From Anaerolineae bacterium (GTDB taxonomy: Bacteria > Chloroflexota > Anaerolineae > VGOG01): DNA of 64,000 bases. How positions within the stretch are numbered: the stretch's first letter is position 1; the number at the start of each line of letters is the position of its first letter. Shown piece after piece: positions 11,388 through 46,481 of the stretch. The stretch covers positions 28,873 to 92,872 of the forward strand of contig DAOUDK010000119.1 of assembly GCA_034431315.1 (NCBI GenBank). Direction: 5' to 3'. The position numbers were made by a program, and so were the translations under genes. The notes beneath the pieces are model-generated. The model searched no databases. It saw nothing but the letters and a program-made list of their open reading frames with translations, and had not been told where the DNA came from.

Positions 11388-14300
11388 TTACCCCCTCACC
11401 TGATAGATTCTCACCATCTCATTCTCATAAACCACCTCCAACTCCCCTCGCCGCACCATCTCATCGAACTTGGCCAGGCCGGCGGCGTCGTAGACGGTGC
11501 GCTCTAACTGGCCCACGTAGATGTAGGAGACGTGCAGCTCGCCGATGAGCTGGAGGGCGCGGGAGATGTCGGGGGTGTTGAAGAAATCGCGCGCCTTTCC
11601 ATCGCGCTCCCCTACCTGCGAAGCGTAGCGCTGCTCGTTCTGGTGAGCGCCCAAGAAAGTAGGCAGCCCCGTGTAAGTGGCTACGCGCAAGCCTCCCTCG
11701 CGATAGTAAGGTATAGCAGCCTCGGCGACGACGGGGGTGCCCTTGACGTTGGCTATCAGCCACTGGAGGGCCTGGTAATCGTACTTCAGCTCGATGCGGT
11801 TGTTGTCAGGCCAGGTGTAAGAGCCGACGGTCATGAAGGCCATCCCATCCAGGGTGCCCACGGGCGGCCTATCGCCAGGGAAGCGATCGTTCACCCGCGC
11901 CGGGGTGAAGACGAGGGGATAGAGCAGGCTGGCGAAGGACAACAAGACCAGGCCAGCAGCCCAGACTCGCCGCTGGCCCGCTGACTGCCAACGCCTCATC
12001 CTGGCCCATAGACTGGGCACGGCCACCGCCGCAGCGATGCCCAGCATCACCCAGACCTGGATGTAGAACTTGAAGATGGTGTTCATGCGCCACCAGGTCT
12101 GGTCCCCGCCCAGGTGATCCTTCAGATAGACCACCTCGCAGCCCGCCGCCACCAGCAGCCCGGTGAAGACCAGCAGGGAGACGAAAAGCTCCTCAGGCGA
12201 GGCATCGTCGCGCAACAGGAGCAGCACAGCTCCAACGACCAGGGGCAATGCAAAGGCCAGCACCCAGAACTTCAGGACAGCCAACACCACCGCCAGCAGC
12301 AACACTCCTCCCAGGCTGTAAATGGACAGGGTATAGTTCGACGTCTGCCGATGCACGAGAGCCTGGTAGATCTCAGCCAGGTGGGGCAGCACCTCCCACC
12401 GTGCTAATAGCACCCGCACAAAGCGCAGCACCCCCAGCCTGGCCCGCTGTCGCACCAACTCCACCAACAAGAAGGTGATGACGATGAACAGGAAAAAGCC
12501 CCAGACGGTGAGGAAAGCCGCCAGGTCCGTCCGTCCTCTGGTGATGGCCAGGCCCAGGCCAACGTCGAGGGTCTGGTAATGGGCGAAGAAGGGCCGGTAG
12601 AGCAGCAGGCTCAGGCCGCCAACAGCGATGGTCGAAATCGCGGGCCAGGCGAGCTTCCATTTACCCTGAGCCAACCTCTCTCGAAGGACGAAGGCGATAG
12701 CGATGAGACCTAAATAGGTCGGGAGGTCCCAGGTGTTGGTCACCGCCAAGGCCCCCAGGCAGATGGGGAGCGAGAGATAGCGAACCGCAGTCGCCAGAGG
12801 TTCGCAGCCTGCCGCCTCTCGCCGCTTCCCGTCCAAGACGATCTCTAGCGCCAGGGCCAACACCAGGATGGTGAACGGTATCCCTATCATGTGGGGGTGC
12901 AAATCGGCGAAGAGGAAGCTGAAATAGGGGAACTCGCTGATGGTGCCGGGGATGACCCGCGTGCGGCCGAAGTAATCCAAAGGAGGCATGGCCTGGCCCC
13001 GGATGACCTTCAACAGCCCCGGCCAGGCCCGCACCAGCCCCTCCAGGCCGGGGATGCTGCTCCTGAAGCCAGAGCCGCCTATCCCACCCAGCCGGTCGGC
13101 CAGGTGCACCATCCCGTCCAGGTTGCCCAACACGGCCACGAAAACCGCCGCCAGCACTCCGGTGAGGACGGGCCTCCGCGCCCGCGCCAGATTGTACCCC
13201 ATACAGAACACGTTCCCCACCGTCAGGGCAAACAGCATCGGGATGGCCAGGTTGAAGGCCAGCGAGGGCATGATGCCCGTCAGCTTGATCACCAGGCCCA
13301 CGATGAACTGGCCGTAGTAGTAATAGTTGATATACCCACCGGCGAAGTAGGGATCGTAGGGCGGAAAGTGGGGGCTCTTGAGGATGGCGTTCAGGAAGGC
13401 GAACTCCATAGGCTTCTCGCCGCCCAGCCAGGGCTGCCACAGATCAGGATTGAACATCCGAATGACGACGAAAAACAGGAAGGCCGCAGCGAAGAGAGCT
13501 TCGTTGAGCAAGATCAAACGCTTGTTATCGCGCCAGAAAGCAACCATCGTCTCTCTGTGGCGTCGGAAGAAATAGAAGGAGAGGACGGCCAGAAGGGCCA
13601 GGGCCAGTATGATAGTGGGCAGACTGTTTCGCAGCAGGCGGAGGCTGGCCGAGATCCACACCAGGTAGGCCACGATTATCAGGCCCAGGCTCTTGGCCAG
13701 GATGTAGCCCCGGTCCGAGAGATGACGGAAGACGACGAAGGTCACTGGCCAGGCAGCCAGTCCCACCAGCACCACCGCCAGCCACCAGAAGATGACGGCG
13801 AACAGATGATAGCGATTGGCCAGGCCGTTCCAGCGGAAGTCGTCAATGACGGGAAGCTCATCCACTGGCCCATCGAGGAGCAGCGTCTTGCCCTCTTCGG
13901 ATTCGCTGGGGGGCGACGCAGGTCGAGAAGTAGCGCCCCAGAAGCGAGCCAAGAGCGTCGGCGCGCCCACGTAGCCGCGGATGGCCCCCTCCCAGCTATC
14001 GCCCAGCAGGGAGTCCCATTCCGCCCCGCTCAGCTCCCGCACCTTCTGGAAGATGATGGGCTTGGGGTGATCGTAGACCGTGAAGCTCTCGTCGCTGGCA
14101 TCGTCATTGAAGACGAAGGGGCCCAGGCGAGGGTAGGTAGTGAACTCAGCCACCTTCTCGAATCCCAGTTCTCCGGCGAAGAGAAGCTGATAGTACCTGG
14201 TGCTCATGGGATAGCGCTCCGGCAGGTTGGGGACGGCCCCGTACAGGCGGTTGGTGGACAGGATGACGTAGTCCGCCTCGCTCAGGCGAGAGCGTATCTG

Positions 14301-15902
14301 GTGGTACTTCTGCTCGTTATCATCCTCATACATGGGCAGCTCGACCAGCCGATACCTGTGCGCCCCGATGTTCGCCCCCGGCTCAGGCAGCCCCAGAGGC
14401 AAGTCATCGTCCCAGTGCTCAGAGGCCAGCACCGAGCCATCGGGCACGTTGTCATAGATCCAGCGCGAGGCGATGATCCAGGAGTGTTCCGTGCCGTAGA
14501 CGCCGCCAACGAAGGCCAGCGCCCAGAAAACCGTCGCCAGCAACACAATGGCTGTTATCAGATATTGGATATTGGATATTGGCCATTGGGTTTTGGGTAT
14601 TCGTCGAGAATATCTAGTATCCAATACCCGATATCCAGCGAAAAGCATCCCTACTCCCATAACCGTGAACAGCGGCACCACCGGCACCATATACCGCACG
14701 AACTTGGCCAGGAAGAGCCCGGTTATGCCGAAGTAGGGAACGATCCAGGAGAGCAGGATCAGCTCGCCCGGCCTGGCTCGCCGCAGGAGGGTGCGCAGCA
14801 GCACCCAGCCCAAACCCAGAAAAGCGACGATGCCCAGCGGCCAACCCATCCCCCAGCGTATTTGCTGCTCGATGTGATAGAGGTAAGGAACCGTGCCTCG
14901 GTACTGGCGGGTGAAGGGCATGTCCGCCCGGCCGCTGGCCATGGCTCCCTGCTCCACAATCACCGCCTGCTTAAAGCTGTCCCAATCTAGAAAGACAAAG
15001 GGTGAGGTGAGGGCGAAAACCAGGAAGGCAACGACGAAGACTAGCAGCAACTGCCGCACAACCTGGATCCGGTCGGTTGGGCCGTCCTGTCTCGACCGCC
15101 ACGCCACGATCATAACGGCCACCACCGGCGCGGCCAGGATCGGCAACGCGCTGAACTTGGAAGCGATGGCCAGACCAGCGCCCAGGCCGGTTAGGGCTGC
15201 TGCGCCTCGCGTGCGGCGTTCCACCATCAGTATGGCGCCATACAGCGCCAGCAAGGTGAAAGTAGTGGAGATGGGATCAACGGCGAAGAAGTGGGCGAGC
15301 TGGATCTGGGTGACGGTGAAAGCGGAGAGAGCCGCCGCCAGCAACCCCGCCGCCTGCCCGTAGATGCGGCGGCCAATCAGGTAGACCAGGTAGACGGTGA
15401 AGGTGTCAGCCAGGGCCATGAGGAAGCGGCCCACGTAGGCGAAGCCCGGCGAGCCGTTGGCCGTGGCCAGGGACTGCACGATCTCAGGAGAAGCGCCGAC
15501 GCGCTCAGCCAGCGGCGCCAGGTTGTGCACCGCGTTGGCAGTGATGGTCAACAAGTAGAGCGGGAAGTGGCCATAGGTGTAGCTTCGGCGATGCTGGCCG
15601 TTGAGGTCCCAGAGGGGGTTGAAGGTAGACTTCTTGGGGTCCAAGGCCGTTGACCAATCCTTTGGCAAATGCATCGTCGGGGCGTAGAAGGCCACCGTCG
15701 AGCGCTCATCCGGGTGGGTCAGCTTGCCGTCATCCCAGGTGATGTTGTAGCAGCGCAAGGCAGCGGCGGCCAACAGCACGGCCAGCAGCGCCAGCTGAGT
15801 CCAATTTCTCTTTAATCTAATCATTGCCTTCTGCATAGTCCTGATTCCTTGTGAAGATGGGGTTATTTTATCACTATTGGGGCTGGATGACAAATGGAAC
15901 AA
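11388..15902 (-). CDS. Giant fused polytopic membrane protein: N-terminal GT-C (family 39/ArnT-like) glycosyltransferase-like half + C-terminal DUF2298 half
   Basis: 1504 aa; N-half homologous to 1877-3664 product, C-half to 3938-6514 product; AGGAGG-like RBS context; dozens of TM helices. Confidence 0.6.
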   Translation of the reverse strand: MFHLSSSPNSDKITPSSQGIRTMQKAMIRLKRNWTQLALLAVLLAAAALRCYNITWDDGKLTHPDERSTVAFYAPTMHLPKDWSTALDPKKSTFNPLWDLNGQHRRSYTYGHFPLYLLTITANAVHNLAPLAERVGASPEIVQSLATANGSPGFAYVGRFLMALADTFTVYLVYLIGRRIYGQAAGLLAAALSAFTVTQIQLAHFFAVDPISTTFTLLALYGAILMVERRTRGAAALTGLGAGLAIASKFSALPILAAPVVAVMIVAWRSRQDGPTDRIQVVRQLLLVFVVAFLVFALTSPFVFLDWDSFKQAVIVEQGAMASGRADMPFTRQYRGTVPYLYHIEQQIRWGMGWPLGIVAFLGLGWVLLRTLLRRARPGELILLSWIVPYFGITGLFLAKFVRYMVPVVPLFTVMGVGMLFAGYRVLDTRYSRRIPKTQWPISNIQYLITAIVLLATVFWALAFVGGVYGTEHSWIIASRWIYDNVPDGSVLASEHWDDDLPLGLPEPGANIGAHRYRLVELPMYEDDNEQKYHQIRSRLSEADYVILSTNRLYGAVPNLPERYPMSTRYYQLLFAGELGFEKVAEFTTYPRLGPFVFNDDASDESFTVYDHPKPIIFQKVRELSGAEWDSLLGDSWEGAIRGYVGAPTLLARFWGATSRPASPPSESEEGKTLLLDGPVDELPVIDDFRWNGLANRYHLFAVIFWWLAVVLVGLAAWPVTFVVFRHLSDRGYILAKSLGLIIVAYLVWISASLRLLRNSLPTIILALALLAVLSFYFFRRHRETMVAFWRDNKRLILLNEALFAAAFLFFVVIRMFNPDLWQPWLGGEKPMEFAFLNAILKSPHFPPYDPYFAGGYINYYYYGQFIVGLVIKLTGIMPSLAFNLAIPMLFALTVGNVFCMGYNLARARRPVLTGVLAAVFVAVLGNLDGMVHLADRLGGIGGSGFRSSIPGLEGLVRAWPGLLKVIRGQAMPPLDYFGRTRVIPGTISEFPYFSFLFADLHPHMIGIPFTILVLALALEIVLDGKRREAAGCEPLATAVRYLSLPICLGALAVTNTWDLPTYLGLIAIAFVLRERLAQGKWKLAWPAISTIAVGGLSLLLYRPFFAHYQTLDVGLGLAITRGRTDLAAFLTVWGFFLFIVITFLLVELVRQRARLGVLRFVRVLLARWEVLPHLAEIYQALVHRQTSNYTLSIYSLGGVLLLAVVLAVLKFWVLAFALPLVVGAVLLLLRDDASPEELFVSLLVFTGLLVAAGCEVVYLKDHLGGDQTWWRMNTIFKFYIQVWVMLGIAAAVAVPSLWARMRRWQSAGQRRVWAAGLVLLSFASLLYPLVFTPARVNDRFPGDRPPVGTLDGMAFMTVGSYTWPDNNRIELKYDYQALQWLIANVKGTPVVAEAAIPYYREGGLRVATYTGLPTFLGAHQNEQRYASQVGERDGKARDFFNTPDISRALQLIGELHVSYIYVGQLERTVYDAAGLAKFDEMVRRGELEVVYENEMVRIYQVRG
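11395..11490. repeat. Direct repeat copy 2 (authentic 3' end of 1504-aa gene) matching 10375-10470
   Basis: See copy 1; spacing of cores exactly 1020 bp, enclosing hicB-hicA. Confidence 0.75.
14560..14600. repeat. (GATATTGG)n / TTGGAT hexamer-type repeat in-frame within 1504-aa CDS (encodes WPISNIQYL)
   Basis: cagatattggatattggatattggccattgggttttgggtattcg; same motif family as 5325-5437 and 43168-43228. Confidence 0.6.
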
Positions 15903-21503: not shown

Positions 21504-21696
21504 TGACTGGCATACCTCCTTCCCTTGTGATATACTGTAGGGCGGAGTTAGTTTGTTCTTGGTTCTGCCTGTCAGCCTGTGCCGATGACGGCCCTAGCTA
21601 TACCACGTTAGAACTACGAAACAAGAGCTTACTGCGTCCTACGTGCTATATCATATCATACTTTCACTTTTCTGTCAAATCTCGATCTCCAAGAGC

Positions 21697-21725
21697 TTGA
21701 CTTTTTAGGGTATTTATGATACAAT
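21697..21725 (+). promoter_or_regulatory. Sigma70-like promoter TTGACT-17-TACAAT
   Basis: agcTTGACTttttagggtatttatgaTACAATac. Confidence 0.45.
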
Positions 21726-21731
21726 ACAAAC

Positions 21732-21860
21732 GAGTAACTTCATAAACTGAGGATTGGTAACGGGGGCGACGATGCTCAGCCTGTGGGCATGGATGCTTGG
21801 GCTAGGTGGAGCCAATAGCATAACCGACCGTTGACGTGATATCTGTAACGGTCGGTTTTT
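21732..21860 (+). ncRNA. Candidate small RNA or leader/attenuator: ~130-nt unit from promoter to intrinsic terminator (ACCGACCGTT..AACGGTCGGT + TTTTT at 21823-21860)
   Basis: Promoter and terminator read directly; no ORF with RBS inside; lies upstream of beta-helix protein gene. Confidence 0.3.
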
Positions 21861-22040
21861 GTGTTTTACCACACTTTGCCCCGCCTGCAAAGTCAAAGGA
21901 GGGTAGCCTATGGAAGATGTCGTCTTATCAGCCGAACGCTTATGAAATTCTGCAAAGGAGGCAGAGAAATGGCAAGCCAATCGTTGTTCGATTCGCTGAG
22001 TAACAATACACAAAAATCCGCAAAGGAGGGAAAAGGTAAG

Positions 22041-23897
22041 ATGAGGACGAATACAAGGAAGTTCAGACTGGCGCTGAGCGCGCTGACGTTGGTAGCACTG
22101 CTGCTTTCGGTCTTTGGAGCGGTTCCGGTGTGGGCACAGACGACTTGGTATGTGGATGATGACAATTGCCCCGGCCCTGGTGCTGGTACGCAGGTTGATC
22201 CCTTCTGCAGCATCCAGGACGCCATTGATGCTGCCACTGCTGGCGACACCATCAACGTGGCGGCGGGGACGTACACCGAGCACGTTACTATCGACAAGTC
22301 ATTAGCCCTTCAGGGGGCTGGCGCATCACAAACTACTATTGATGTCTCCGGTTTGCTGATACAGAATCCGCATGTCGCGGTCGAGGTTCAAAATGGTGTC
22401 AACAACGTTGTTGTAGATGGATTCACGATAATTGGAGTTCCAGCGTTCCATCACTCTGACGACTCGGTTATACGATGTGGCGGGAGCAGTGGCACCAATA
22501 ATGACATAACTATAAGCAACAACGTTATAGACGGATATGTAGGCATCCTGTTTAAGAATGGCGACAGTTTTACAGTGCAACAGAACGATATTACCTTCAA
22601 TAAAAATGCTATCGTCATTCAAAGTGGATGCACCAACGTCGACATTTCAGATAATACGATGACTGGCGGAACCAGTATGCAAACAGACCCCTATGGGATT
22701 TACATCACTTCCACCACTGGTTCTATCACAGGAAACACTATAGAGAATGTCATTGGACCTGATGACGGGGGTAAAGGTATTGGCGGAAGCAGTAACCATG
22801 ATCTGGTTATTGACGACAACGTCATCAATAACACGGGATATGATGGCATTTCCTTCTGGAGTAACACCCACCATGTCACCATCAGCAACAACACCCTGAG
22901 CAATAACGCACAGACGTATTACAAAGGTGGTGGAATAACCATCAAAGGCGACGACATCACCATCATAAACAACGACATTACCGGCAGCGGACATGACGGT
23001 GTCATCATTGACACCCATGTGCTCGACAGCGTACGTATTGACATCAATTACAACAATATATGGGGAAATGCTGATTATGGTGTCAATGTGAAGAATGCGG
23101 GTGAGACTGTCGATGCCGAGAACAACTGGTGGGGTCATGCCAGTGGGCCTGATGATGATGCAGGAGTTATTAATGGCACTGGTGATAAGATCAGCACCAA
23201 TGTTGATGCCGACCCCTGGATTGGGAAGACAGGTGAGCCGTCGGGGCACGGGGATGCCACCAATGGAGGCACAGCCACGGTCAGCGCGGGCAACAGTTCT
23301 GTGTACGTGGATGCAGACCCTGGGAAAAGCGGCGGGGTGAGTGTGGTCGAAGAAACAGCAGCTCCGCCGCAGGGCTTTGCCGGCATGGGCAGCGGCGCAA
23401 AGCTTAACAAATACCTTGTGATCACCAGCGACTTCGCCGACGGCGACTTCTTCGCCACCGTCAAGCTCCACTACACCCAGGCTGAGTATGAGGCCATGGG
23501 TAACCCCAGCAACCTGGCGCTGTTCTGGTGGGACGCGGCCAACAGTACGTGGATGCTGGCCGTGGACGCCAATACGACCGGCGGCAAAAGCTACAAAGGC
23601 AATAGTAACCCCGCGGACCATGCCACCCTCGGCGACTATGGCTTTTACGACCAGGGCGCGGCCGGGGGAATCATCTGGGCCAACGTTGACCACTTCAGTG
23701 ACTTCGGCGGCGCGGAAGTCGGTTCTGGAGGCGGCCCCACCGCCATCACCCTCTCCTCCTTCGCCGCCAGGTCAAGCGCAGGTCTGGGAACTCCCCTCGT
23801 TTGGTCGTGGCCGGTCGGGGTAGCAATGCTGGCCATGGGCGGCGTCCTCTGGGTGAGGCGGCGGCGGTCGAATAGGCCTAGAAGTGACCCCAACTGA
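22041..23897 (+). CDS. Secreted right-handed parallel beta-helix repeat protein with C-terminal hydrophobic helix + poly-Arg tail (sorting signal or anchor)
   Basis: Start at ATG 22041 after AAGGAGGG; signal peptide MRTNTRKFRLALSALTLVALLLSVFGAVPVWAQ; repeated N..I..N beta-helix rungs; C-term VWSWPVGVAMLAMGGVLWVRRRRSNR. Confidence 0.55.
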   Translation: MRTNTRKFRLALSALTLVALLLSVFGAVPVWAQTTWYVDDDNCPGPGAGTQVDPFCSIQDAIDAATAGDTINVAAGTYTEHVTIDKSLALQGAGASQTTIDVSGLLIQNPHVAVEVQNGVNNVVVDGFTIIGVPAFHHSDDSVIRCGGSSGTNNDITISNNVIDGYVGILFKNGDSFTVQQNDITFNKNAIVIQSGCTNVDISDNTMTGGTSMQTDPYGIYITSTTGSITGNTIENVIGPDDGGKGIGGSSNHDLVIDDNVINNTGYDGISFWSNTHHVTISNNTLSNNAQTYYKGGGITIKGDDITIINNDITGSGHDGVIIDTHVLDSVRIDINYNNIWGNADYGVNVKNAGETVDAENNWWGHASGPDDDAGVINGTGDKISTNVDADPWIGKTGEPSGHGDATNGGTATVSAGNSSVYVDADPGKSGGVSVVEETAAPPQGFAGMGSGAKLNKYLVITSDFADGDFFATVKLHYTQAEYEAMGNPSNLALFWWDAANSTWMLAVDANTTGGKSYKGNSNPADHATLGDYGFYDQGAAGGIIWANVDHFSDFGGAEVGSGGGPTAITLSSFAARSSAGLGTPLVWSWPVGVAMLAMGGVLWVRRRRSNRPRSDPN

Positions 23898-32976: not shown

Positions 32977-33288
32977 TCAGGCGGGAAGGCGTTGCGGATA
33001 TGCGCTTACAGGTATCTTGCTGCTGAAGATCGGCTCGCTCACAGGTTCTTCCTCAGCCTCTAACTCATACAGTGCCTCTGGTGCAAAATCGGCTTCGTTG
33101 GGCCAGACCACTGTACCTGCCACAGGGTCTATAACCACACGGGCAAAATAGGTCGGGTCATGCAACGGCTCAAAAATAGGGCCGTCTAGCAACGATAGTA
33201 GGTTCACCCGTTTGCGCGTGCCATCACTGAACGTCAACCGCAGTGAGTGGGGCCCACAGACTTTAGCCTCAAGGATATGCAAAATCAT
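32977..33288 (-). CDS. DUF2442-domain protein
   Basis: 103 aa; typical partner of DUF4160; ILHILEAKVCGPHSLRLTFSDG. Confidence 0.5.
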   Translation of the reverse strand: MILHILEAKVCGPHSLRLTFSDGTRKRVNLLSLLDGPIFEPLHDPTYFARVVIDPVAGTVVWPNEADFAPEALYELEAEEEPVSEPIFSSKIPVSAYPQRLPA

Positions 33289-33305: not shown

Positions 33306-33566
33306 TCATTCAAGCGGCGGGATGCGCTGCAGTGGTTGGCCCGCTCGCGCCAGCTCCCAATTGACCTGCAACTCATCCTGATACATGGATGCCCATTCAA
33401 AGACCAGTGACTGTACCCGCCGGGGTAAAATCCCCTTTAGCACCTCCACTGGGTCAATGCCAATCGCGGCGTCATATTGAGCGTAGATGGCATGGAAATG
33501 CGGTGGCACGTGATCCTTGTAGTACATGTAGACTGCAATCCCGAAGAACTCAGAGATTCTCGGCAT
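33306..33566 (-). CDS. DUF4160-domain protein
   Basis: 86 aa; MPRISEFFGIAVYMYYKDHVPPHFHA signature. Confidence 0.5.
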   Translation of the reverse strand: MPRISEFFGIAVYMYYKDHVPPHFHAIYAQYDAAIGIDPVEVLKGILPRRVQSLVFEWASMYQDELQVNWELARAGQPLQRIPPLE

Positions 33567-33656: not shown

Positions 33657-33730
33657 TCGGGGCGGCCGGATTTGAACCGGCGGCCACTTGAACCCCATTC
33701 AAGTGCGCTACCTGGCTGCGCTACGCCCCG
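33657..33730 (-). tRNA. tRNA-Pro (anticodon GGG), no encoded CCA
   Basis: Cloverleaf folded by hand: acceptor CGGGGCG/CGCCCCG, D-stem GCGC, anticodon stem CTTGA/TCAAG loop ATGGGGT, T-stem GCCGG/CCGGC loop TTCAAAT. Confidence 0.8.
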
Positions 33731-33738
33731 TCAGAGTA

Positions 33739-33767
33739 ATTATAACAGATAGCTATGAATTTGGCAA
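33739..33767 (-). promoter_or_regulatory. Sigma70-like promoter TTGCCA-17-TATAAT for tRNA-Pro
   Basis: Minus strand: TTGCCAaattcatagctatctgtTATAATtactctgaCGGGG. Confidence 0.55.
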
Positions 33768-34149
33768 ATTAACCGGGGTGGCGCCGCTGGTTGCCGAAGC
33801 CCACGCTGAACAACGTGCCCAACGTCCGCGTCGGAGAGGTCGTCCCAAGGGAGTGCCCTTCGCCAGCAGAATCGACATGGCTTACGAAGAGGCCACCACC
33901 TTCGGGCCACCACCGGATACCCATACCCATCTGCTGATTGATACCTGGTACATGGCCAAGCGCATCTGGCGGGCTGCTCGCCGACGGAATTGGGATGTCA
34001 GCGGTGGGTTGAAGGGCAATCGGGCGATGCGCGTGATCGACACTACTGATCTTCTATAACGACGCAGAATTAACCAAAATAGCCGTTTTGCAACCCCAAT
34101 TGCCCAGTTTCGCCTACAGGTTGTCCCTAACTCGAAACGCTCTCGCCCC

Positions 34150-37388: not shown

Positions 37389-37413
37389 GTCATTACCTCA
37401 TTGGCGAACTTCT

Positions 37414-37490
37414 GAAACACGGAAGCACGGAAAAGCGGAATACACGGAATCCCTTTCCGTGCTTCCGTGCCCTCCGCACTTCCGTGTTCC
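37414..37490. repeat. Long imperfect inverted repeat with CACGGAAG/CTTCCGTG repeated three times per arm
   Basis: gaaacacggaagcacggaaaagcggaatacacggaat-ccc-tttccgtgcttccgtgccctccgcacttccgtgttcc. Confidence 0.5.
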
Positions 37491-37514
37491 AGGGGGAGAG
37501 CCGGGGCAGCCACC

Positions 37515-40500
37515 TTATTCGATAGGCCAAGCAGATATCAGCTCGTCAATCTCACTCATCAACCGCATGGTCTCTTTCAGGGCCACGACGATCTTCTGGT
37601 AGTGGAAGAAGTCGTCGAAGATGAGCTTGCGGCCTTTGCGGTCTTTGAGCCACTTGTGCAAGACCTGGTAGCCGCCGATCTGGAACTCCCAGACCTCTGG
37701 CTCGATTCCCTCGAAGTACTGGGTTTTGTTGATGTAGACACGGCCCGTGGGCCTCGGCTTGGGCTTGGGTCGGATCTTTACCTGCGTTTGGTGCTCGAAG
37801 ACAAGCGGCAATCTACGGTTGGACACTCTCACTGACGCGGGAGAAGTACCAGTGGGGACTTTCTTTTCCTCCGTGACCTTCTCCACATAGCGGACTTTCT
37901 CCACCCTGTCGGAGCCGGACACGCCAAAGTTGGTGATGAGGTGGTTCAGCTCTGGTGACTCCATCAGGTGCAGGCTCACCAGTTCCTCGCCCCTCTCGGC
38001 CAGGGCCTTGAACAGCGCCCGGTCGGAGGTGAGGGGCAGGCGGGGGAAGTCAATCTTGAGGAGTTCGGCGTAGCGCTCGCGGTAGGTGGGGGAGTGGAAG
38101 ACGGCGTAGGCGTAGTGGAGGATGTCCTCCGGGCCGAAGGTGGTTTCCAGGTCCCCCTTGCCTTCCGTCACGAATTCCAGACCCAGCTTCTCCTCGACGG
38201 CGGCGATGAACTCGGGCGAGAGGTTGGGATCGCGGGTCTTGTACTCCGCTTTGGGCTCAAACAGCGTGAGGGCGATGACGCTTCCGCCCGCCTTCGTGGG
38301 TTTCTTTTCAGGGGTGGTGTAGAGGTAGAGGGGGAAAACATTATACGGAGCAAAAGGCTGCGAACTAATTTCGGTTATAAGCTGAGTTACAAACAACACA
38401 AAATGTTTACGAGCCGCAAGCTGCCTTGCTGCAACTAACGCCATATTCTTGTGCGTCATATGGTGCATTACTTCAAACCGTGGCCACTCGACAACATTGT
38501 GGCTGTAATAGATGGAACGAATATCGAAGGGGCGATAGAGGCATTTTGTAAACCTATCTTCCCATTTCTTGTCCCCTTGGATTCCCTTTCTTGCTTCCGA
38601 AAGCTTCCAATCACGAGTGTCCCTTAGCCCGAATCGCTCCCTCACCTCATAATCGGAAAATGTCTTGTCTCGGAAGGTGGCAATGCGTGACCGCAGACGC
38701 TTTTCCTCGAAGTCAATGACGAAGCGGTCACGGTGAGTTTTGATACCGCTGCTGTTCACTGGGAAAATATCTGGCACCCTCCATCCCCGCTCGTACTCAC
38801 TCAGCAAGTCAAAGTCCTTGGGCACGAAAAAGAAATATGGCGACACTGGCTCAAGCGCCTGCCAATCCGTAGTGCTGACGTCGTTCTCCCACAGGTGGCG
38901 GTATTTGCCCTCCCGCAGGCCCCACAAATCGGTGTAGTAGACCTTTGAGGTTTCGGAAACCTCAAAGGTCTGGGCGGGCCGCTTCACAAAGAGGGAAATC
39001 GCCACTCCCTGCCTGATGTCGAAGACGTTCTCATCTGGACCGCCATCGGGCGTGGTCTCCCCCATCAAGGCGTTGCCGTGCAGGTTCAGCACGTAGATCT
39101 CATCGAAGGACTTCATCAACTCCTCCCTCATCCCCCGGTGGATCAGGCCGGAGAGGTAGGAGTGGTTGGTGATCATACCGATGACGCCGTAGCCGGTGCG
39201 CTCGATGCGGTCGTGGGCGAAACGGATGAACTTGATGTAGTCGTCGGAGAGGGGCTGGATGTTGCGCTCATCACGGACGGCGGTTTTGTAGCGTTCCATC
39301 AGTCCCTCGATGTGCTCTCCCTTGTTGGCCGAACTGACCGAATAGGGGGGATTGCCCAGCACCACCATGATGGGCTTGTCCCGCTTGATCTCCGCAGCGG
39401 CGTTGGCCTCCTCGGTGATGAACCTGGCAAAGCCAAGAGTCTGGGCCTGGGTGATCGCCTCCTCCAGCGAATTGGTCAGGTAGATGCCCAGCCGCTGGTC
39501 GCCCGTGAAGTCGTAGCCGGTCTCCTGCAACAGAATGCCCAGCTTTATATGGGCCACGGCGTAGGGAGCCATCAGCAGCTCGAAGCCAAAGACGCGGGGC
39601 AGGAGATGGGTTTCGACGTAGTCGTTCCAGGCGCCGGCCTGGCCCATCGCTATCAAGGTCTCGTGGATCTGCTGGATGACGAAGTAGAGGAAGGTCGCCG
39701 TGCCAACGGCCGGGTCGAGGATGAGGGTGTTGGTGTCGGCCAGGCCCAGGGGGCGGTCGAAGCGGGTCTTGACGATGTGATCGAGAGAACGAACGATGTA
39801 TGAAACCACCGGCTCAGGGGTGTAGTAGACGCCACGGGCTTTGCGCGTCTGGGGGGCGTAGGCGCGGAGGAATGTCTCGTAGAAGTGGACCACTGGGTCC
39901 TCCTGCCGCGTCCGCCTGCCGAAGTCGCGCAGGATCTCCGCCATGTCCGCCCGTGCCAGCAGGTGAGCCAGGTCGTCCACCAGCCAGGCAATGCGGTCGT
40001 CCAGTCCCGGCCCAGCGATCTGGTTGAAGAGCCTGCGCAAGAAGGGGTTGGTCTTGGGCAGGTTCCAGGCCGCCTTCTCACGGGTGAAATCCTGCCCGGT
40101 CGGGACACGGACGCGGGCGGCAAAGAGGCCGTAGGTGATGGTCTGGGCGTACATATCGGCGAATTCAGCCGGGGTGAGGAAGGGGATCAGCGTCTCTCGG
40201 AAGGCTTTCAATTGGGCGTGCAGTGCGCCCTCTTCGCTCTCCCGCTTGAAGGTCTCCTCGATGAGATCGCGGGTCATGCGAGCCAGAGCGGCCATGCGTT
40301 GGGCCAGCTCTTTGGGAGTGCCCACCGTGGGCACCACCTGGGCCAAGAACTTCTGCAACAGCCCCGAAACGGCCTGGATGCCGCCCCTTCGTATCCTGAT
40401 CCTCCCATCAATGGTCAGCGTAGCCAGGCGTGCCGTCTCCCGGTGCTCGCCCTCCACGTACCAGCGGAACTCCAGGTAGTCGGTGAGGATCAGGTTGTTG

Positions 40501-40784
40501 AGCGATTCGCGGTAGCGGCGCAGTTGCTCGGACCGCTCCGCCGCGTCCAGGCTCCTTCCCACGTCCTTGGCCTCGACGTAGCCGACGGGCGTACCGGCGC
40601 GGGTGATGATGTAATCGGGCGCGCCGCACTCGATGCGCTTGGGCTCGTTGATGGCGGTGATGTTCTCGCCGACGGCCTCCAGGAGGGCTTTGAGGGCCGG
40701 GCGGTGGGTGTGTTCGGTAGCGCTCCCCGTCGCCAGGCTCTTCTCTATATTTCTCAGGTAATCTCGGAAAACATCGGGGGACAT
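37515..40784 (-). CDS. Single-chain Type IIG/IIL restriction-modification enzyme (N-terminal PD-(D/E)XK nuclease, gamma-class N6-adenine methyltransferase NPPY, C-terminal specificity domain)
   Basis: 1089 aa; PDYII...VEAKD nuclease motif; VVLGNPPYSVSS; C-terminal YFEGIEPEVWEFQIGGYQVLHKWLKDRKGR motif typical of MmeI/type ISP-like C-termini. Confidence 0.65.
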   Translation of the reverse strand: MSPDVFRDYLRNIEKSLATGSATEHTHRPALKALLEAVGENITAINEPKRIECGAPDYIITRAGTPVGYVEAKDVGRSLDAAERSEQLRRYRESLNNLILTDYLEFRWYVEGEHRETARLATLTIDGRIRIRRGGIQAVSGLLQKFLAQVVPTVGTPKELAQRMAALARMTRDLIEETFKRESEEGALHAQLKAFRETLIPFLTPAEFADMYAQTITYGLFAARVRVPTGQDFTREKAAWNLPKTNPFLRRLFNQIAGPGLDDRIAWLVDDLAHLLARADMAEILRDFGRRTRQEDPVVHFYETFLRAYAPQTRKARGVYYTPEPVVSYIVRSLDHIVKTRFDRPLGLADTNTLILDPAVGTATFLYFVIQQIHETLIAMGQAGAWNDYVETHLLPRVFGFELLMAPYAVAHIKLGILLQETGYDFTGDQRLGIYLTNSLEEAITQAQTLGFARFITEEANAAAEIKRDKPIMVVLGNPPYSVSSANKGEHIEGLMERYKTAVRDERNIQPLSDDYIKFIRFAHDRIERTGYGVIGMITNHSYLSGLIHRGMREELMKSFDEIYVLNLHGNALMGETTPDGGPDENVFDIRQGVAISLFVKRPAQTFEVSETSKVYYTDLWGLREGKYRHLWENDVSTTDWQALEPVSPYFFFVPKDFDLLSEYERGWRVPDIFPVNSSGIKTHRDRFVIDFEEKRLRSRIATFRDKTFSDYEVRERFGLRDTRDWKLSEARKGIQGDKKWEDRFTKCLYRPFDIRSIYYSHNVVEWPRFEVMHHMTHKNMALVAARQLAARKHFVLFVTQLITEISSQPFAPYNVFPLYLYTTPEKKPTKAGGSVIALTLFEPKAEYKTRDPNLSPEFIAAVEEKLGLEFVTEGKGDLETTFGPEDILHYAYAVFHSPTYRERYAELLKIDFPRLPLTSDRALFKALAERGEELVSLHLMESPELNHLITNFGVSGSDRVEKVRYVEKVTEEKKVPTGTSPASVRVSNRRLPLVFEHQTQVKIRPKPKPRPTGRVYINKTQYFEGIEPEVWEFQIGGYQVLHKWLKDRKGRKLIFDDFFHYQKIVVALKETMRLMSEIDELISAWPIE

Positions 40785-43231: not shown

Positions 43232-45325
43232 TTACGCCGCTAACACCAGCCGCATGTCAACGCCCACCACTCCCCGCCCGGCCTCGAACACGATGAGCGG
43301 GTTGATGTCCATCTCCATGATCTCGGGGAAATCGGTCACCAACTGCGAAAGCCGCAGCAGTGTGTCCACGATGGCTTCGATGTCCGAGGGCCGCTCACCG
43401 CGGACTCCCTTGAGCAGGCTGTAAGCGCGGATCTCCGTGATCATCTCCTGGGCCTCCTGCCGCGAGAAGGGCGCTATGCGAAAGGCCACGTCTTTGAGAG
43501 CCTCGACGTAGATCCCACCCAGGCCGAACATCATCAGCGGGCCGAACTGGGGGTCGCAGTTCATGCCCACGATGACCTCTTTGCCCCCCCGCACCATCTC
43601 CTGCACCAGACAGCCCCAGATCTCGGCGTCGGGCATGTAGCGGGTGGCCCGGTAGACTAACAGGTCGAAGGCATCCCGCACATCGGTGGCGCTGGCAATG
43701 CCCAGCTTGATGCCGCCGATGTCGGTCTTGTGGAGGATGTCCGGAGAAGTGATCTTCATCACCACCGGATAGCCGATCTCCTCGGCGATCTCCACCGCCT
43801 CATCGGCCGAGGTGGCCAGCTTGGACGCGGGGATGCGGATGCCGTAGGCTTCCATTATGTCCCGCGCCTCGGCGTCGCCGATGGTCTGCCGTCTGTCGGC
43901 CTTCACCCGCTCAAAGATGCCCCTCACCCTCTCCCGATCAACGTCAAACTCCTCGATCTCCAGGGGAGGGCGATCCAACCAGCGCCGGTATTCCAGCATG
44001 GCCCTCAGCGCCCCCACCGCCCGCTCAGGAAAGGAGTAGTTGGGTATCCTATGTTCGTTGAGCACCTTGATCCCCGCGCGGACCCTGGCCTCCCCCATGA
44101 AGCAGCCCAGGACAGGCTTATCGTAGCCAGCGGCGATCCGACCCACCGCCTCGGCTGTCTCCTCAATCCTGGTCATCACCTGGGGGGTGAGGATGACGAT
44201 GACGCCGTTCACGCCTTCGTCCTCAAGGGCAGCCTCCAGGGCCAGGGCGTAGCGGTCGGTCGGAGCATCTCCCAGGACGTCTATCGGATTGTAGATGTTG
44301 GCGGCGGCGGGGAGATTGTCCCGCAGGACATCAATCGTCTCCCGACTCAGCGAGGCCAGCGAGAGGCCCTCCCGCTCCAGGGCGTCGGTGGCCATCACGC
44401 CCGGCCCGCCGGCGTTGGTGACGATAGCGATGCGACCCCCTCGGAGCACTGGCTGGTAAGCGAAAGCTAGCGAATAGTCGAACAGGTGTTGGATGGACTC
44501 GGCCCTGAGCACCCCGCTCTGGCGGAAGGCCGACTCGTAAGCCCGCGCCGACCCCGCCAGAGAGCCAGTGTGAGAGGAGACGGCCCGTGAACCGGCGTCG
44601 GTAGAGCCGGACTTCACGGCGATGACCGGGATGCGGCGAGTGACCCTGCGGGCGACCTCCATAAACTCCTTGCCTTCGGAGAGGCCCTCGATGTAAGTGA
44701 GAATCACTTTGGAATGGGGATCGTCCTCCCAGGCCGCCAGCAAGTCAACCTCGTCCACGTCGGCCTTGTTGCCCAGGCTCACGAAGCGAGAGAAGCCGAT
44801 CCCAACGGCGAGGGCCCAGTCGAGGATGGCGGTGCAGAGAGCCCCCGACTGGGACATGAAGGCGATCTCTCCCTGGGGAGGCATCCCGGCGGCGAAGGAA
44901 GCGTCGAGCGGGCATAAGGTGTCTATGACCCCCAGGCAGTTGGGGCCGATGAGCCGCATCCCATGCCGTCTGGCGATGGCGACCAGCTCCCGCTCCATCC
45001 TCACCCCCTCCAGCCCGGCCTCGCGGAAGCCCGCGCTGATGATTATGACCCCTTCGACGCCTTTCTGGCCACATTCTTCCAGCGCCGTAGCAACGTACTT
45101 GTTGGGGATAACCATGACCGCCAAATCTATGGGCCCCGGGGCATCCAGGACGCTGGGGTAACACTTGAGCCCCAGGATCTCATCGGCCTTAGGGTTGATG
45201 GGGTAGACCTGGCCTGGGTAGCCATGTTCGATGATATTCGACAGCACCCCGTGACCCAGTTTCTCCTTGTCGCGAGAGGCGCCGATCACAGCCACCGCCT
45301 GGGGGCAGGAAAACATTTCAAGCAT
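43232..45325 (-). CDS. Acetate--CoA ligase (ADP-forming), fused alpha/beta
   Basis: 697 aa; CoA-binding N-term (AVIGAS), succinyl-CoA-synthetase-like flavodoxin domain, ATP-grasp C-term. Confidence 0.75.
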   Translation of the reverse strand: MLEMFSCPQAVAVIGASRDKEKLGHGVLSNIIEHGYPGQVYPINPKADEILGLKCYPSVLDAPGPIDLAVMVIPNKYVATALEECGQKGVEGVIIISAGFREAGLEGVRMERELVAIARRHGMRLIGPNCLGVIDTLCPLDASFAAGMPPQGEIAFMSQSGALCTAILDWALAVGIGFSRFVSLGNKADVDEVDLLAAWEDDPHSKVILTYIEGLSEGKEFMEVARRVTRRIPVIAVKSGSTDAGSRAVSSHTGSLAGSARAYESAFRQSGVLRAESIQHLFDYSLAFAYQPVLRGGRIAIVTNAGGPGVMATDALEREGLSLASLSRETIDVLRDNLPAAANIYNPIDVLGDAPTDRYALALEAALEDEGVNGVIVILTPQVMTRIEETAEAVGRIAAGYDKPVLGCFMGEARVRAGIKVLNEHRIPNYSFPERAVGALRAMLEYRRWLDRPPLEIEEFDVDRERVRGIFERVKADRRQTIGDAEARDIMEAYGIRIPASKLATSADEAVEIAEEIGYPVVMKITSPDILHKTDIGGIKLGIASATDVRDAFDLLVYRATRYMPDAEIWGCLVQEMVRGGKEVIVGMNCDPQFGPLMMFGLGGIYVEALKDVAFRIAPFSRQEAQEMITEIRAYSLLKGVRGERPSDIEAIVDTLLRLSQLVTDFPEIMEMDINPLIVFEAGRGVVGVDMRLVLAA

Positions 45326-45642
45326 ATTTATCTCCTACACGTTTGACAATGATATAACACAACCTCAAAAATGGCAAATCCGAACAGCAACCAAGGATTT
45401 CGATATGCCTGAAAACTACTCAATCGGCGCTCGCCAGTCTCCCGCCTGAGAACCGAATAGCCCTGCAATGCAACGGCTACGACTTGACCTCTGGTTGAAA
45501 ATAGGTTATACTTCCAGAAGACGTTGCACCAAACCGAGAGCAACTGACGGTTAGTGGCAAGAGGTGACTGAAACGATAGGCATTGAGTATACCAGCATTA
45601 AGGTGAGAAATCCTTTGAAAGACGGAGCAGAGGAGTTGTGCT

Positions 45643-46065
45643 ATGTCTCAGACTATCACGATCAGCTTATCTGACACTTTGTACAAGCAATTGAAACGGG
45701 CAGCCCAGTTGTCTCGCCAGCCGACCGAGACCATTATCATACAAAGCCTGACCCACACTCTGCCTGCCTTGTTGGAGGAGATTCCTGCTCGTTACCAATC
45801 GGACGTCTATCCGCTCTTACAAATGAGTGATGCTAACTTGCAACGAGAAGCAAACCGCACCTTCTCTTCGCAGCGTTGGGCCGAGTATGAAGCGTTGCTC
45901 GACAGGAAAAAGACGAAGCCATTGACACCTGAGGAAGAAACGCGTCTTGATACCCTCCGTCGTGAAGCTGATGTGCTCATGTTTCGCCGGGGCTACGCGG
46001 CGGTTCTTCTCAAAAGGCGTGGCCATCGTCTGCCGACACTACATGAACTGGCGCAGTCGAGATGA
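45643..46065 (+). CDS. Hypothetical protein with RHH-like N-terminus (ITISLSDTLYKQLKRAA), possible antitoxin/partner of HNH nuclease
   Basis: 140 aa; stop overlaps start of HNH gene (ATGA). Confidence 0.35.
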   Translation: MSQTITISLSDTLYKQLKRAAQLSRQPTETIIIQSLTHTLPALLEEIPARYQSDVYPLLQMSDANLQREANRTFSSQRWAEYEALLDRKKTKPLTPEEETRLDTLRREADVLMFRRGYAAVLLKRRGHRLPTLHELAQSR

Positions 46066-46481
46066 CCCCCTCTGCCCAAGCATTGCGCCAACGCATCGCA
46101 GAACAGGCACACCACCGGTGCGGTTATTGCCAGACACAGGAGGTCATTAGCGGAATACCGCTGACCCTGGAGCACATCGTCCCCAAAGCAAAAGGTGGGC
46201 AGGACGCAGAAGAGAACCTATGGCTTTCTTGCCGCTTATGCAACGAGGCCAAAAGTGTTTCGACTGAAGCCATTGATCCAGAGACCGGTGTCACAGCGCC
46301 GCTTTTCAACCCTAGAACACAAACTTGGCTAGAGCATTTTACCTGGAGCGAGGACGGTACACGTATCACAGGTCAGACGCCAACAGGCCGGGCCACGGTC
46401 GCCGCATTGTCTCTCAACAGCGAGTTGCGGGTGCGTGCTCGAGCCATCTGGGTTGAAGCTGGCTGGCACCCGCCGGAGTAG
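46062..46481 (+). CDS. HNH endonuclease
   Basis: 139 aa; HHRCGYC...LEHIVPKAKGG..NLWLSCRLCN HNH/zinc-finger motif. Confidence 0.7.
   Translation: MTPSAQALRQRIAEQAHHRCGYCQTQEVISGIPLTLEHIVPKAKGGQDAEENLWLSCRLCNEAKSVSTEAIDPETGVTAPLFNPRTQTWLEHFTWSEDGTRITGQTPTGRATVAALSLNSELRVRARAIWVEAGWHPPE

Follow-up and report, generated by a model that had tools for sequence, protein, structure and literature searches.

Evidence for replacement of the recognition-domain core in a solitary DrdV-like restriction-modification gene of an Anaerolineae bacterium

How can a restriction-modification (RM) enzyme made of a single chain come to read a new DNA target? The question is raised by one gene in a stretch of 64,000 nucleotides (nt) from an uncultured Anaerolineae bacterium (assembly GCA_034431315.1, contig DAOUDK010000119.1, positions 28,873 to 92,872 of the forward strand), and this whole stretch is called the window throughout. 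The gene encodes a protein of 1089 amino acids (aa), referred to here as the RM protein. An initial annotation of the window had noted in the gene a patch of low guanine-cytosine (GC) content, of the kind that a horizontally exchanged target recognition domain (TRD) would leave. The reading favored here is that of a single-chain DrdV-like RM enzyme in which the TRD core was replaced by recombination, on a backbone that sits at a conserved locus, and its probability can be put at roughly 85%.

Replacement of the recognition-domain core

The segment that appears to have been exchanged, called the cassette below, covers aa 681-836. The RM protein belongs to a family with at least 8000 matches (the top one 85% identical), mostly from Chloroflexota and Anaerolineae. 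In the 16 closest homologues, an identity of 90-99% over aa 1-580 and 860-940 drops to 34-58% over aa 700-840, which puts the divergence in the AT-rich block, as the initial annotation had anticipated. The closest partners also change with the part of the protein that is compared. The best matches to the core of the enzyme (95-97%) have cassettes that are 31-52% identical, and the best matches to the cassette (85-90%) have enzyme cores at 88-89%. The same is seen in the DNA. Four orthologues (P0007, P0010, P0013, and P0016) have a DNA identity of 0.92-0.94 over aa 1-580 and of 0.43-0.58 over aa 681-836, where there is no real alignment. Two further homologues, P0006 and P0078, stand at 0.85-0.87 in the enzyme core and at 0.89 in the cassette. 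Because orthologues cannot be aligned inside the block while more distant backbones carry the same block at 89%, the comparison among homologues demonstrates, at the level of sequence, that the cassette has been replaced.

Informative sites change their allegiance between the enzyme core and the cassette (Fisher p 1e-36 to 1e-58). The cassette is therefore phylogenetically incongruent with the rest of the gene, and the early idea of an exchanged TRD is borne out in this form. The RM protein is not the only one concerned, for among 198 family members, 77 of the 132 pairs with an enzyme-core identity of at least 90% have cassettes below 45%. A few pairs are even mosaics of half a cassette; in the pair L056/L058, for example, the enzyme core is 98% identical, the left half of the cassette 88%, and the right half 38%. 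Conserved flanks, unrelated TRD cores at the same locus, and the same TRD core in other backbones are all found, and the pattern in the RM family is one of repeated TRD-core replacement by recombination in conserved flanks, a mechanism that is known in principle.

The backbone, for its part, stays where it is. In contig JAUWOY010000025 (L085), the order of genes (acetyl-CoA-synthetase-like, DRTGG, major facilitator superfamily [MFS] transporter, RM, GH20, MFS transporter) is that of the window from 45325 to 35499, and a GH20 gene likewise lies downstream of the RM gene in L083. These comparisons show that the RM backbone occupies one conserved chromosomal position in an Anaerolineae lineage.

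What does the cassette hold? The patch had at first been placed between the methyltransferase and the C-terminal domain, but it is inside the Type_ISP_C match (aa 672-1077), in the core of the recognition domain. In the TRD of Type ISP enzymes, bases are read by a variable core and a jaw; the guide, which is the most conserved part, reads none, and loops IV-VI lie in the core (PMC4872093). The conservation profile of the RM family fits this division. In DrdV, the base contacts of the TRD are made by N673, R721, Y764, D803, and K807 (bioRxiv 10.1101/2021.01.06.425610), and these residues align with H684, E730, W767, S807, and P813 of the RM protein, a span of aa 684-813. K682 and H684 occupy the positions of Type ISP loop IV, at an identity too low for predicting a recognition sequence. 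The segment aa 681-836 is thus the recognition-domain core, and by homology it would carry the equivalents of Type ISP loops IV-VI and of the DrdV base contacts. The left edge of the cassette is gradual (aa 640-700, depending on the partner), and the right edge lies at aa 817-850. Most likely, homologous recombination took place in the conserved flanks, which would be the last part of the methyltransferase domain on one side and the TRD “guide” on the other. With the base-reading loops replaced, the target of restriction and of methylation would be changed in one step. The bases read by the TRD would change, and the part of the site next to the methyltransferase would probably be kept.

The enzyme and its likely mode of action

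The coordinates of the gene, its domains, and the features near it are collected in Table 1.

Table 1. Features of the RM gene and its surroundings (window positions; strand given as minus or, where it does not apply, as a dot)
Feature	Position	Strand	Basis or remark
RM gene, complete open reading frame of 1089 aa, filed as DrdV-like Type IIL	37515..40784	-	Reading frame and translation, Pfam, PADLOC, solved relatives
PD-(D/E)xK nuclease domain, ~aa 1-150	40335..40784	-	Motifs, HSDR_N, invariance; limits approximate
PDYII, aa 56-60	40605-40619	-	Nuclease motif
VEAKD, aa 70-74	40563-40577	-	Nuclease motif
Helical connector (putative), ~aa 151-295	39900..40334	-	From domain order; limits approximate
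Gamma-class N6-adenine methyltransferase domain, ~aa 296-650	38835..39899	-	Pfam, DrdV alignment, motifs
Motif I LDPAVGTATF, aa 356-365	39690-39719	-	Methyltransferase domain, precedes motif IV
Motif IV NPPY, aa 478-481	39342-39353	-	Methyltransferase domain
Perfect 16+1+16 palindrome AGACCTTTGAGGTTTC-G-GAAACCTCAAAGGTCT, copy of a dispersed repeat	38939..38971	.	In frame in the RM gene
AT-rich trough at synonymous sites, aa ~640-840	38265..38867	-	Low-GC patch of the initial annotation
Exchanged TRD-core cassette, aa 681-836 (from comparison of homologues)	38277..38744	-	DNA identity contrasts, DrdV base-contact alignment
Conserved C-terminal TRD part, aa 837-1089, “guide” equivalent	37518..38276	-	Homologue conservation
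Lineage-specific insertion, aa 956-1012, predicted disordered	37749..37919	-	Homologue gaps, predicted structure confidence
IGGYQVLHKWLKDR, aa 1036-1049	37638-37679	-	In the conserved C-terminal TRD part
Long hairpin, candidate terminator or processing site	37412..37492	.	In the 126-nt gap from the RM stop codon to the GH20 start

The open reading frame (ORF) is intact, and the single polypeptide with nuclease, methyltransferase, and C-terminal domains that the initial annotation described is there, together with its motifs PDYII, VEAKD, NPPY, and IGGYQVLHKWLKDR. Pfam finds N6_Mtase at aa 294-543 (E 5e-13), Type_ISP_C at E 1.3e-92, and a weak match to HSDR_N at aa 55-96 that covers the PD...ExK motif. 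The PADLOC model REase_MTase_IIG matches at E 3.6e-283. When the protein is searched by sequence against solved structures, the best matches are DrdV (7lo5, E 5e-45), LlaBIII (1e-44), and LlaGI (1e-38). The phmmer alignment with DrdV begins at aa 298, and the nuclease and the connector go undetected by sequence against DrdV. An AlphaFold model of the protein has a mean predicted local distance difference test score (pLDDT) of 74.8, and in a Foldseek search of this model against the PDB, DrdV comes first (E 2e-39, colinear over 1011 columns of the 1014-residue chain). LlaBIII and LlaGI follow, and far behind them come MmeI (1.7e-11), BpuSI, and BrxX/PglX (about 1e-9).

The candidate catalytic residues of the nuclease are E24, D57, and E71-x-K73; those of DrdV are E25, D64, E79, and K81 (bioRxiv 10.1101/2021.01.06.425610). 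Across 59 family members, E24, D57, E71, and K73 do not vary, and neither do motif I and NPPY. (The alignment of these 59 homologues and the structure model lack Met1, and positions in them are one below the true residue numbers.) The predicted structure is all-helical over aa 134-316 and matches by order the “helical connector” of DrdV, which makes the dimer interface in that enzyme (same preprint). In the methyltransferase domain, N478-Y481 align with N448-Y451 of DrdV, and F588 aligns with F562, a residue that stacks on the flipped adenine (same preprint). The C-terminal part of the TRD is well conserved, with an identity to close homologues of 91-97% over aa 860-940 and 1020-1080. Within this conserved “guide” part lies an insertion, aa 956-1012, that is rich in K, P, and R. 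The gap fraction there is 0.43-0.47 in homologues, and the pLDDT is below 50 over true aa 943-1043. The insertion is shared with P0010 (0.85 DNA identity) and is not found in P0007, P0013, or P0016, nor in most of the family.

No helicase or ATPase family is found in the RM protein by Pfam, NCBIfam, or PADLOC, and for this reason it is not a Type ISP enzyme. Its domain content, its matches to DrdV, and its invariant motifs are the grounds on which it is filed as DrdV-like Type IIL. The evidence supports a solitary single-chain enzyme with nuclease, methyltransferase, and TRD. The initial annotation had called it both MmeI-like and type ISP-like. The first of these labels is a loose one, since the closest enzymes are DrdV and then the Type ISP enzymes. 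In Pfam, MmeI_N, MmeI_hel, MmeI_TRD, and MmeI_C go unmatched, and MmeI_Mtase stays below its threshold.

How might such an enzyme work? From the structures of DrdV and of Type ISP enzymes, the methyltransferase and recognition domains would clamp an asymmetric site of about 6-7 bp. If the RM protein behaves as DrdV does, one adenine would be flipped and methylated, on one strand only and slowly. Cleavage would occur at a fixed distance, and it would be fast only once several enzyme molecules on unmethylated sites have assembled.

Low GC content and the alternative explanations

The low-GC patch was the first hint of an exchange, and its extent has been measured. Positions 38320-38880 have a GC content of 0.487, and 200-nt windows reach 0.45 at 38300-38600. 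Over the entire gene the value is 0.593, and outside the patch it is about 0.615. The early description of 45% in a 62% gene is a fair one for the minimum, and sliding windows confirm that GC is not uniform. The signal is mainly synonymous. GC at third codon positions (GC3) is 0.86 over aa 1-580, 0.54 over aa 681-836, and 0.89 over aa 837-955, and other genes of the window have a GC3 of about 0.76. At four-fold sites, GC falls from 0.87 to 0.52 in the cassette, and at codon positions 1 and 2 only from 0.52 to 0.45. Still, the patch ranks within the lowest 2.4% among 560-nt windows and, by GC3, within the lowest 2.6% among 140-codon windows, and the window has five other patches that are lower. 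Since the patch is not extreme within the window, the case for exchange rests on the comparison with homologues.

The dip is also far from unique. Of 78 homologous genes (L002-L080), which come from many phyla, 75 have a lower GC3 in the segment aligned with the cassette than in aa 1-580 (median drop -0.17, Wilcoxon p 4e-14). The family trough spans about aa 571-840 and is deepest at aa 691-810. The five unrelated cassettes of the RM gene and its four syntenic orthologues have a GC3 of 0.46-0.61, against 0.82-0.86 in the enzyme cores. Low GC is, then, a synonymous-site signature of all cassettes in the RM family. As a sign of exchange, it does mark the specificity module; but the trough is family-wide, and low GC alone neither dates nor proves a recent swap. 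Two simpler accounts of the trough were tried and rejected. If cassettes came from a common pool and regressed to its composition, those of AT-rich hosts should be GC-richer than their flanks, and they are not. Nor does any amino-acid-variable segment have low GC3, for aa 121-150 and 961-1020 show no dip.

Two explanations of the trough are left. Cassettes may be acquired repeatedly from AT-richer or mobile sources, or they may be long-lived alleles that escape GC-biased gene conversion. According to the second, the cassettes would be ancient alleles kept by balancing (frequency-dependent) selection; being unpaired, they would escape the conversion and drift to AT, and their flanks would recombine often and stay GC-rich. 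The composition would then say nothing about a foreign origin. We regard this account as possible but, on balance, rather doubtful. It is favored by a trough that is present in nearly all hosts and deeper in GC-rich ones (correlation -0.45), with none of the reversal in AT-rich hosts that a common donor pool would predict. Also, cassettes are shared only by related backbones, and the three copies of the cassette of the RM gene keep a GC3 of 0.53-0.54 despite about 10% divergence. Biased gene conversion has to be assumed for these organisms, however, and weaker dips occur in segments that align well between orthologues (the bins aa 481-510 and 571-600, where the two methyltransferase-domain loops that read bases in DrdV are located). 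A signal of the same sign would also be expected of mobile or recently transferred DNA, which as a rule has more AT than its host. With a trough confined to the TRD core and its approach, the family offers a clean case for testing repeated import against escape from GC-biased conversion.

A different concern is whether the RM protein restricts at all. In practice it could be only a methyltransferase, or a restriction enzyme in decay, and would then serve as an epigenetic or orphan methylase or, in the manner of PglX, as part of a larger system. The gene is solitary amid metabolic and transport genes, a stable hairpin lies within its ORF, and there are weak partial matches to models of PglX and of the MAD2 methyltransferase. 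Against this, the ORF is intact, the four candidate nuclease residues are invariant in the family, and DrdV, to which the chain aligns in full, is an active restriction enzyme. The partial matches are far under their cut-offs. The PADLOC PglX match is partial (E 1.3e-5), the fold match to BrxX has an E of about 1e-9, the NCBIfam model BREX_2_MTaseX gives 16.6 bits against a cut-off of 400, and the MAD2 methyltransferase model gives 16.8 bits against 720. The protein is thus not the PglX-type methyltransferase without a nuclease motif that had been considered as its possible identity, and Pfam and PADLOC find no genes of the bacteriophage exclusion (BREX) or MADS systems near it. A methylase-only role is therefore improbable.

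Could rapid point mutation under diversifying selection instead have made the cassette diverge where it stands, with the low GC as a by-product of AT-biased mutation? The cassette segment is the most variable part of the RM family, and a GC3 trough in 75 of 78 genomes, low-GC hosts included, resembles a general mutational effect. But orthologues whose DNA differs by 6-8% outside the cassette fall to 43-58% identity within it, which is about the level of unrelated sequences, and the same cassette is 89% identical in more distant backbones, with conflicting trees. The half-cassette mosaic of L056/L058 and the absence of a GC3 dip from the variable segments aa 121-150 and 961-1020 do not fit either. 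As an origin of the cassette differences, divergence in place is already contradicted by these alignments, and we hold it to be very improbable. That the patch is a compositional accident or a matter of amino-acid content only, as its rank in the window (2.4th percentile, five patches lower) and a segment rich in K, F, Y, D, E, and R might suggest, is refuted by a drop that falls on third positions and four-fold sites, with little change at positions 1 and 2, and that recurs across the family.

Of course, several points weigh against replacement of the TRD core in a DrdV-like enzyme. No near-identical donor of the cassette (above 95%) was found, and the exchange could predate this genome. A cassette-only search of an index of 5.8 billion proteins gave two weak matches and missed even P0006 and P0078, so it provides no evidence that donors are absent. 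Among the 198 proteins, none of the cassettes is common to backbones below 70% enzyme-core identity, and exchange would thus seem to be limited to related genes. This does not go well with a low GC imported from far-off AT-rich donors. Within the cassette, the RM protein and DrdV align at about 22-25% identity, which makes the mapping of base contacts approximate. The global TM-score to DrdV is about 0.4, a low value that may be attributed to differing orientations of the domains in the model of a four-domain protein. Finally, what is said here of a recognition sequence, of activity, and of a change of specificity is what we infer for the RM protein from its better-known relatives.

A dispersed palindrome, the rest of the window, and known systems

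The RM gene has a second notable feature. Its 33-nt palindrome (Table 1) is translated in the frame of the gene as part of QTFEVSETSKVY (aa 605-616). In the structure model, these residues lie in a surface loop of low confidence that separates the methyltransferase domain from the TRD. The palindrome is the single copy in the window, and none of 100 shuffles matched it. At this site, P0007 and P0016 carry another perfect palindrome, with five arm positions changed and all five compensated in the other arm; other close orthologues have none there. Covariation in place between the two variants was considered and dropped, as both are also dispersed elsewhere. Palindrome peptide signatures or their decayed remnants are present in about 25 of 120 RM homologues. 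In distant Type_ISP_C homologues, the palindrome is found across the TRD core from there, at positions equivalent to aa ~825 and ~850-880, and the copies in the RM family thus occupy the two variable linkers on either side of the TRD cassette. More boldly, one might suppose that hairpin-forming repeats at the cassette junctions promote the exchange of cassettes. A separate observation concerns P0097, a homologue of 1316 aa, in which a segment like the Y1 transposases of the REP-associated tyrosine transposase (RAYT)/IS200 type (aa 1029-1089) is inserted in frame in the TRD. It stands just before the conserved TFGPED motif (equivalent to aa ~880) and splits Type_ISP_C in two.

Beyond the RM family, the repeat has arms of the form AGAC[YTYYRARG]TYTC, with copies in the window, at L081:3675-3705 and L086:2878-2908, and in L087-L206, L207-L210, L117, and L212. 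A search of metagenomes with the degenerate pattern finds it in at least 120 places. Among the matches listed, which are the basis of the counts in this paragraph, 110 are perfect palindromes and three are in RM homologues; the flanks are unrelated, the GC content of the contigs ranges from 0.41 to 0.69, and there is neither a target-site duplication nor an extension of the palindrome into the flanks. The repeat amounts to 11 codons and never shifts the frame, and one orientation of its central base yields TGA in one frame. In 79 of the 120 listed copies, the repeat lies in a stop-free span of at least 150 codons, and all three frames are used. Pfam places copies in or between the domains of a class I tRNA synthetase, orotidine monophosphate decarboxylase, glycine dehydrogenase, a homocysteine-methyltransferase/methylenetetrahydrofolate reductase fusion, and a TIR protein, and at least nine of 75 ORFs that span the repeat are DNA methyltransferase or RM genes. 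Among Anaerolineae, the repeat has entered surface loops of proteins as unlike one another as the synthetase, the orotidine monophosphate decarboxylase, the glycine dehydrogenase, and several DNA methyltransferases.

The synthetase is a valyl-tRNA synthetase (ValRS) of Anaerolineae, whose relatives show presence, absence, and decay of an 11-residue insert at one loop; when the 33 nt are taken out, the reading frame stays intact. Four other ValRS sequences (P0213, P0215, P0223, and P0235) have different inserts at this loop, for example SPLPxGEGxRGEGE, that resemble another, GC-rich palindromic repeat, which suggests that several such repeat families exist in these genomes. Four IMG/VR contigs of two tailed-phage lineages hold four to seven copies in 8-13 kb, and in one of them (L210) six of the seven copies are in short gaps after structural (late) genes. 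No copies are found in the plasmids of PLSDB or the phages of INPHARED, no Y1 transposase lies beside the copies in the loci examined and no mobilizing enzyme was identified there, and the searchable literature holds no match to the repeat sequence or its peptide. An adapter or assembly artefact is unlikely, given inheritance at orthologous sites, decayed remnants, and several sources of data.

Short palindromic repeats in many unrelated places are known from other bacteria. Rickettsia palindromic elements (RPEs) are about 100-150 nt long and lie in frame within protein-coding genes, at surface loops. Repetitive extragenic palindromes (REPs) carry GTAG or CGTC end tags, and mobilization of the REP and IS200/IS605 type leaves no target-site duplication. 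The repeat described here is like RPEs and REP/RAYT elements in its dispersal; its in-frame copies at surface loops recall RPEs, and the lack of a target-site duplication recalls the REP and IS200/IS605 type. It differs from them in being 33 nt long and perfect, with a single central base and without the end tags of REPs, and it is mostly genic in the metagenome sample and intergenic in the phage genomes. We regard it as a dispersed repeat that tolerates, or is tolerated in, coding loops. That it is a copy of an undescribed mobile or self-propagating repeat is a tentative proposal, with the odds somewhat against it. If it were confirmed to propagate, it would be a very small selfish element inside genes that links a bacterial class to its phages.

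What else does the locus hold? The neighbors of the RM gene encode a GH20 hydrolase, two MFS transporters, a DRTGG protein, and an ADP-forming acetyl-CoA-synthetase-like (CoA-ligase) protein. By Pfam and PADLOC, none of them matches a defense model and none is a separate methyltransferase or specificity gene, as first reported. No second TRD copy or inverted silent cassette occurs in the window, and scans for promoters and terminators within the RM gene gave nothing exceeding shuffles. The hairpin in the gap after the RM gene is nearly perfect, with 16-nt arms of 100% complementarity inside 20-nt arms of 85%. It is not related in sequence to the 33-nt palindrome, and an Rfam scan placed no family above the gathering scores, this hairpin included. 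At the orthologous locus of relatives, variable genes are inserted beside the RM gene (L083:3872-6211, L086:4290-7430, and L085:8752-9918 and 13222-14482). They include SIR2_2-TPR and SIR2_2-nSTAND1 genes, a PALP enzyme, and DUF2804, none of which is in the window. The RM locus behaves as a small variable islet, part of it defense.

Elsewhere in the window, a protein of 398 aa with a TIR_2 domain (6638-7834, minus strand) has a GC3 of 0.52, lies among the patches of lowest GC, and is a candidate foreign defense gene. The region 45311-46481 holds a stretch with a GC content of 0.47 and, after it, two small ORFs on the plus strand; Pfam has no match for the first, and the second (46062-46481) encodes an HNH endonuclease. 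A DUF4160/DUF2442 pair (33306-33566 and 32977-33288, minus strand) adjoins a fragment of a DDE_5 transposase (33688-34059, plus strand). These genes, between PdtaS/PdtaR-like two-component genes and an MFS gene, look like small remnants of a mobile element or of a toxin-antitoxin-like system. The patch of lowest GC (0.434) is at 21511-23060, in a plus-strand ORF (21861-23897) for a beta-helix/NosD-like protein with a local GC3 of 0.45, possibly another mosaic gene.

The RM locus may be seen as a natural series of specificity swaps, with five orthologous enzymes at 92-94% DNA identity outside the cassette and unrelated cores of 156 aa. DrdV-like Type IIL enzymes have one solved structure and a large uncharacterized membership, and the series could link the sequence of the TRD core to the target. 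It would also show cut-and-paste points for engineering.

Among known systems, the closest is DrdV of Deinococcus wulumuqiensis (Type IIL, PDB 7lo5/7lvv). Both are single chains of about 1000-1100 aa with the same order of domains, a PD-ExK nuclease, a helical connector, a gamma-class N6-adenine methyltransferase, and a TRD of the Type_ISP_C type, and neither has an ATPase. Their catalytic motifs are equivalent. They differ in that identity is only about 22% and that the RM protein has the extra disordered insertion of aa 956-1012. The Type ISP enzymes LlaBIII and LlaGI share a homologous methyltransferase-TRD unit (E 1e-38 to 1e-44) with the same Pfam TRD family. Unlike the RM protein, they have a RecA-like translocase between nuclease and methyltransferase and cleave far from the site upon collision. 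Their RecA-like superfamily 2 ATPase and coupler are not found in the RM protein by Pfam, and the alignments of LlaBIII and LlaGI begin at their methyltransferase domains. The difference is also one of length, 1089 aa against 1570-1580 aa for a full-length Type ISP enzyme (the LlaBIII chain has 1578 aa). LlaGI and LlaBIII have a similarity of more than 95% outside the TRD and differ in the TRD (PMC3553950), and this is the pattern of the RM family.

The MmeI family (Type IIL, PDB 5hr4) is alike in general architecture and in the logic of modifying a single strand. The MmeI_Mtase match is weak (E 0.0064, 16.1 bits against a cut-off of 27), the fold match (E 1.7e-11) is much weaker than that of DrdV, and the RM protein is not a member of the MmeI family in the strict sense. 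For the exchange itself, the nearest precedents are Type I hsdS, Type III mod, and Type IIG S genes, in which TRDs are replaced or moved through recombination in the conserved sequence that flanks them (Furuta and Kobayashi, PMC3575425, PMC3077401). There, as in the RM family, recognition domains are allelic in orthologous genes, the exchange takes place at the conserved flank, and a switch of target is expected. Those cases come mainly from Helicobacter and from separate specificity or mod genes, whereas here the exchange concerns a single-chain DrdV-like enzyme of an uncultured member of the Anaerolineae.

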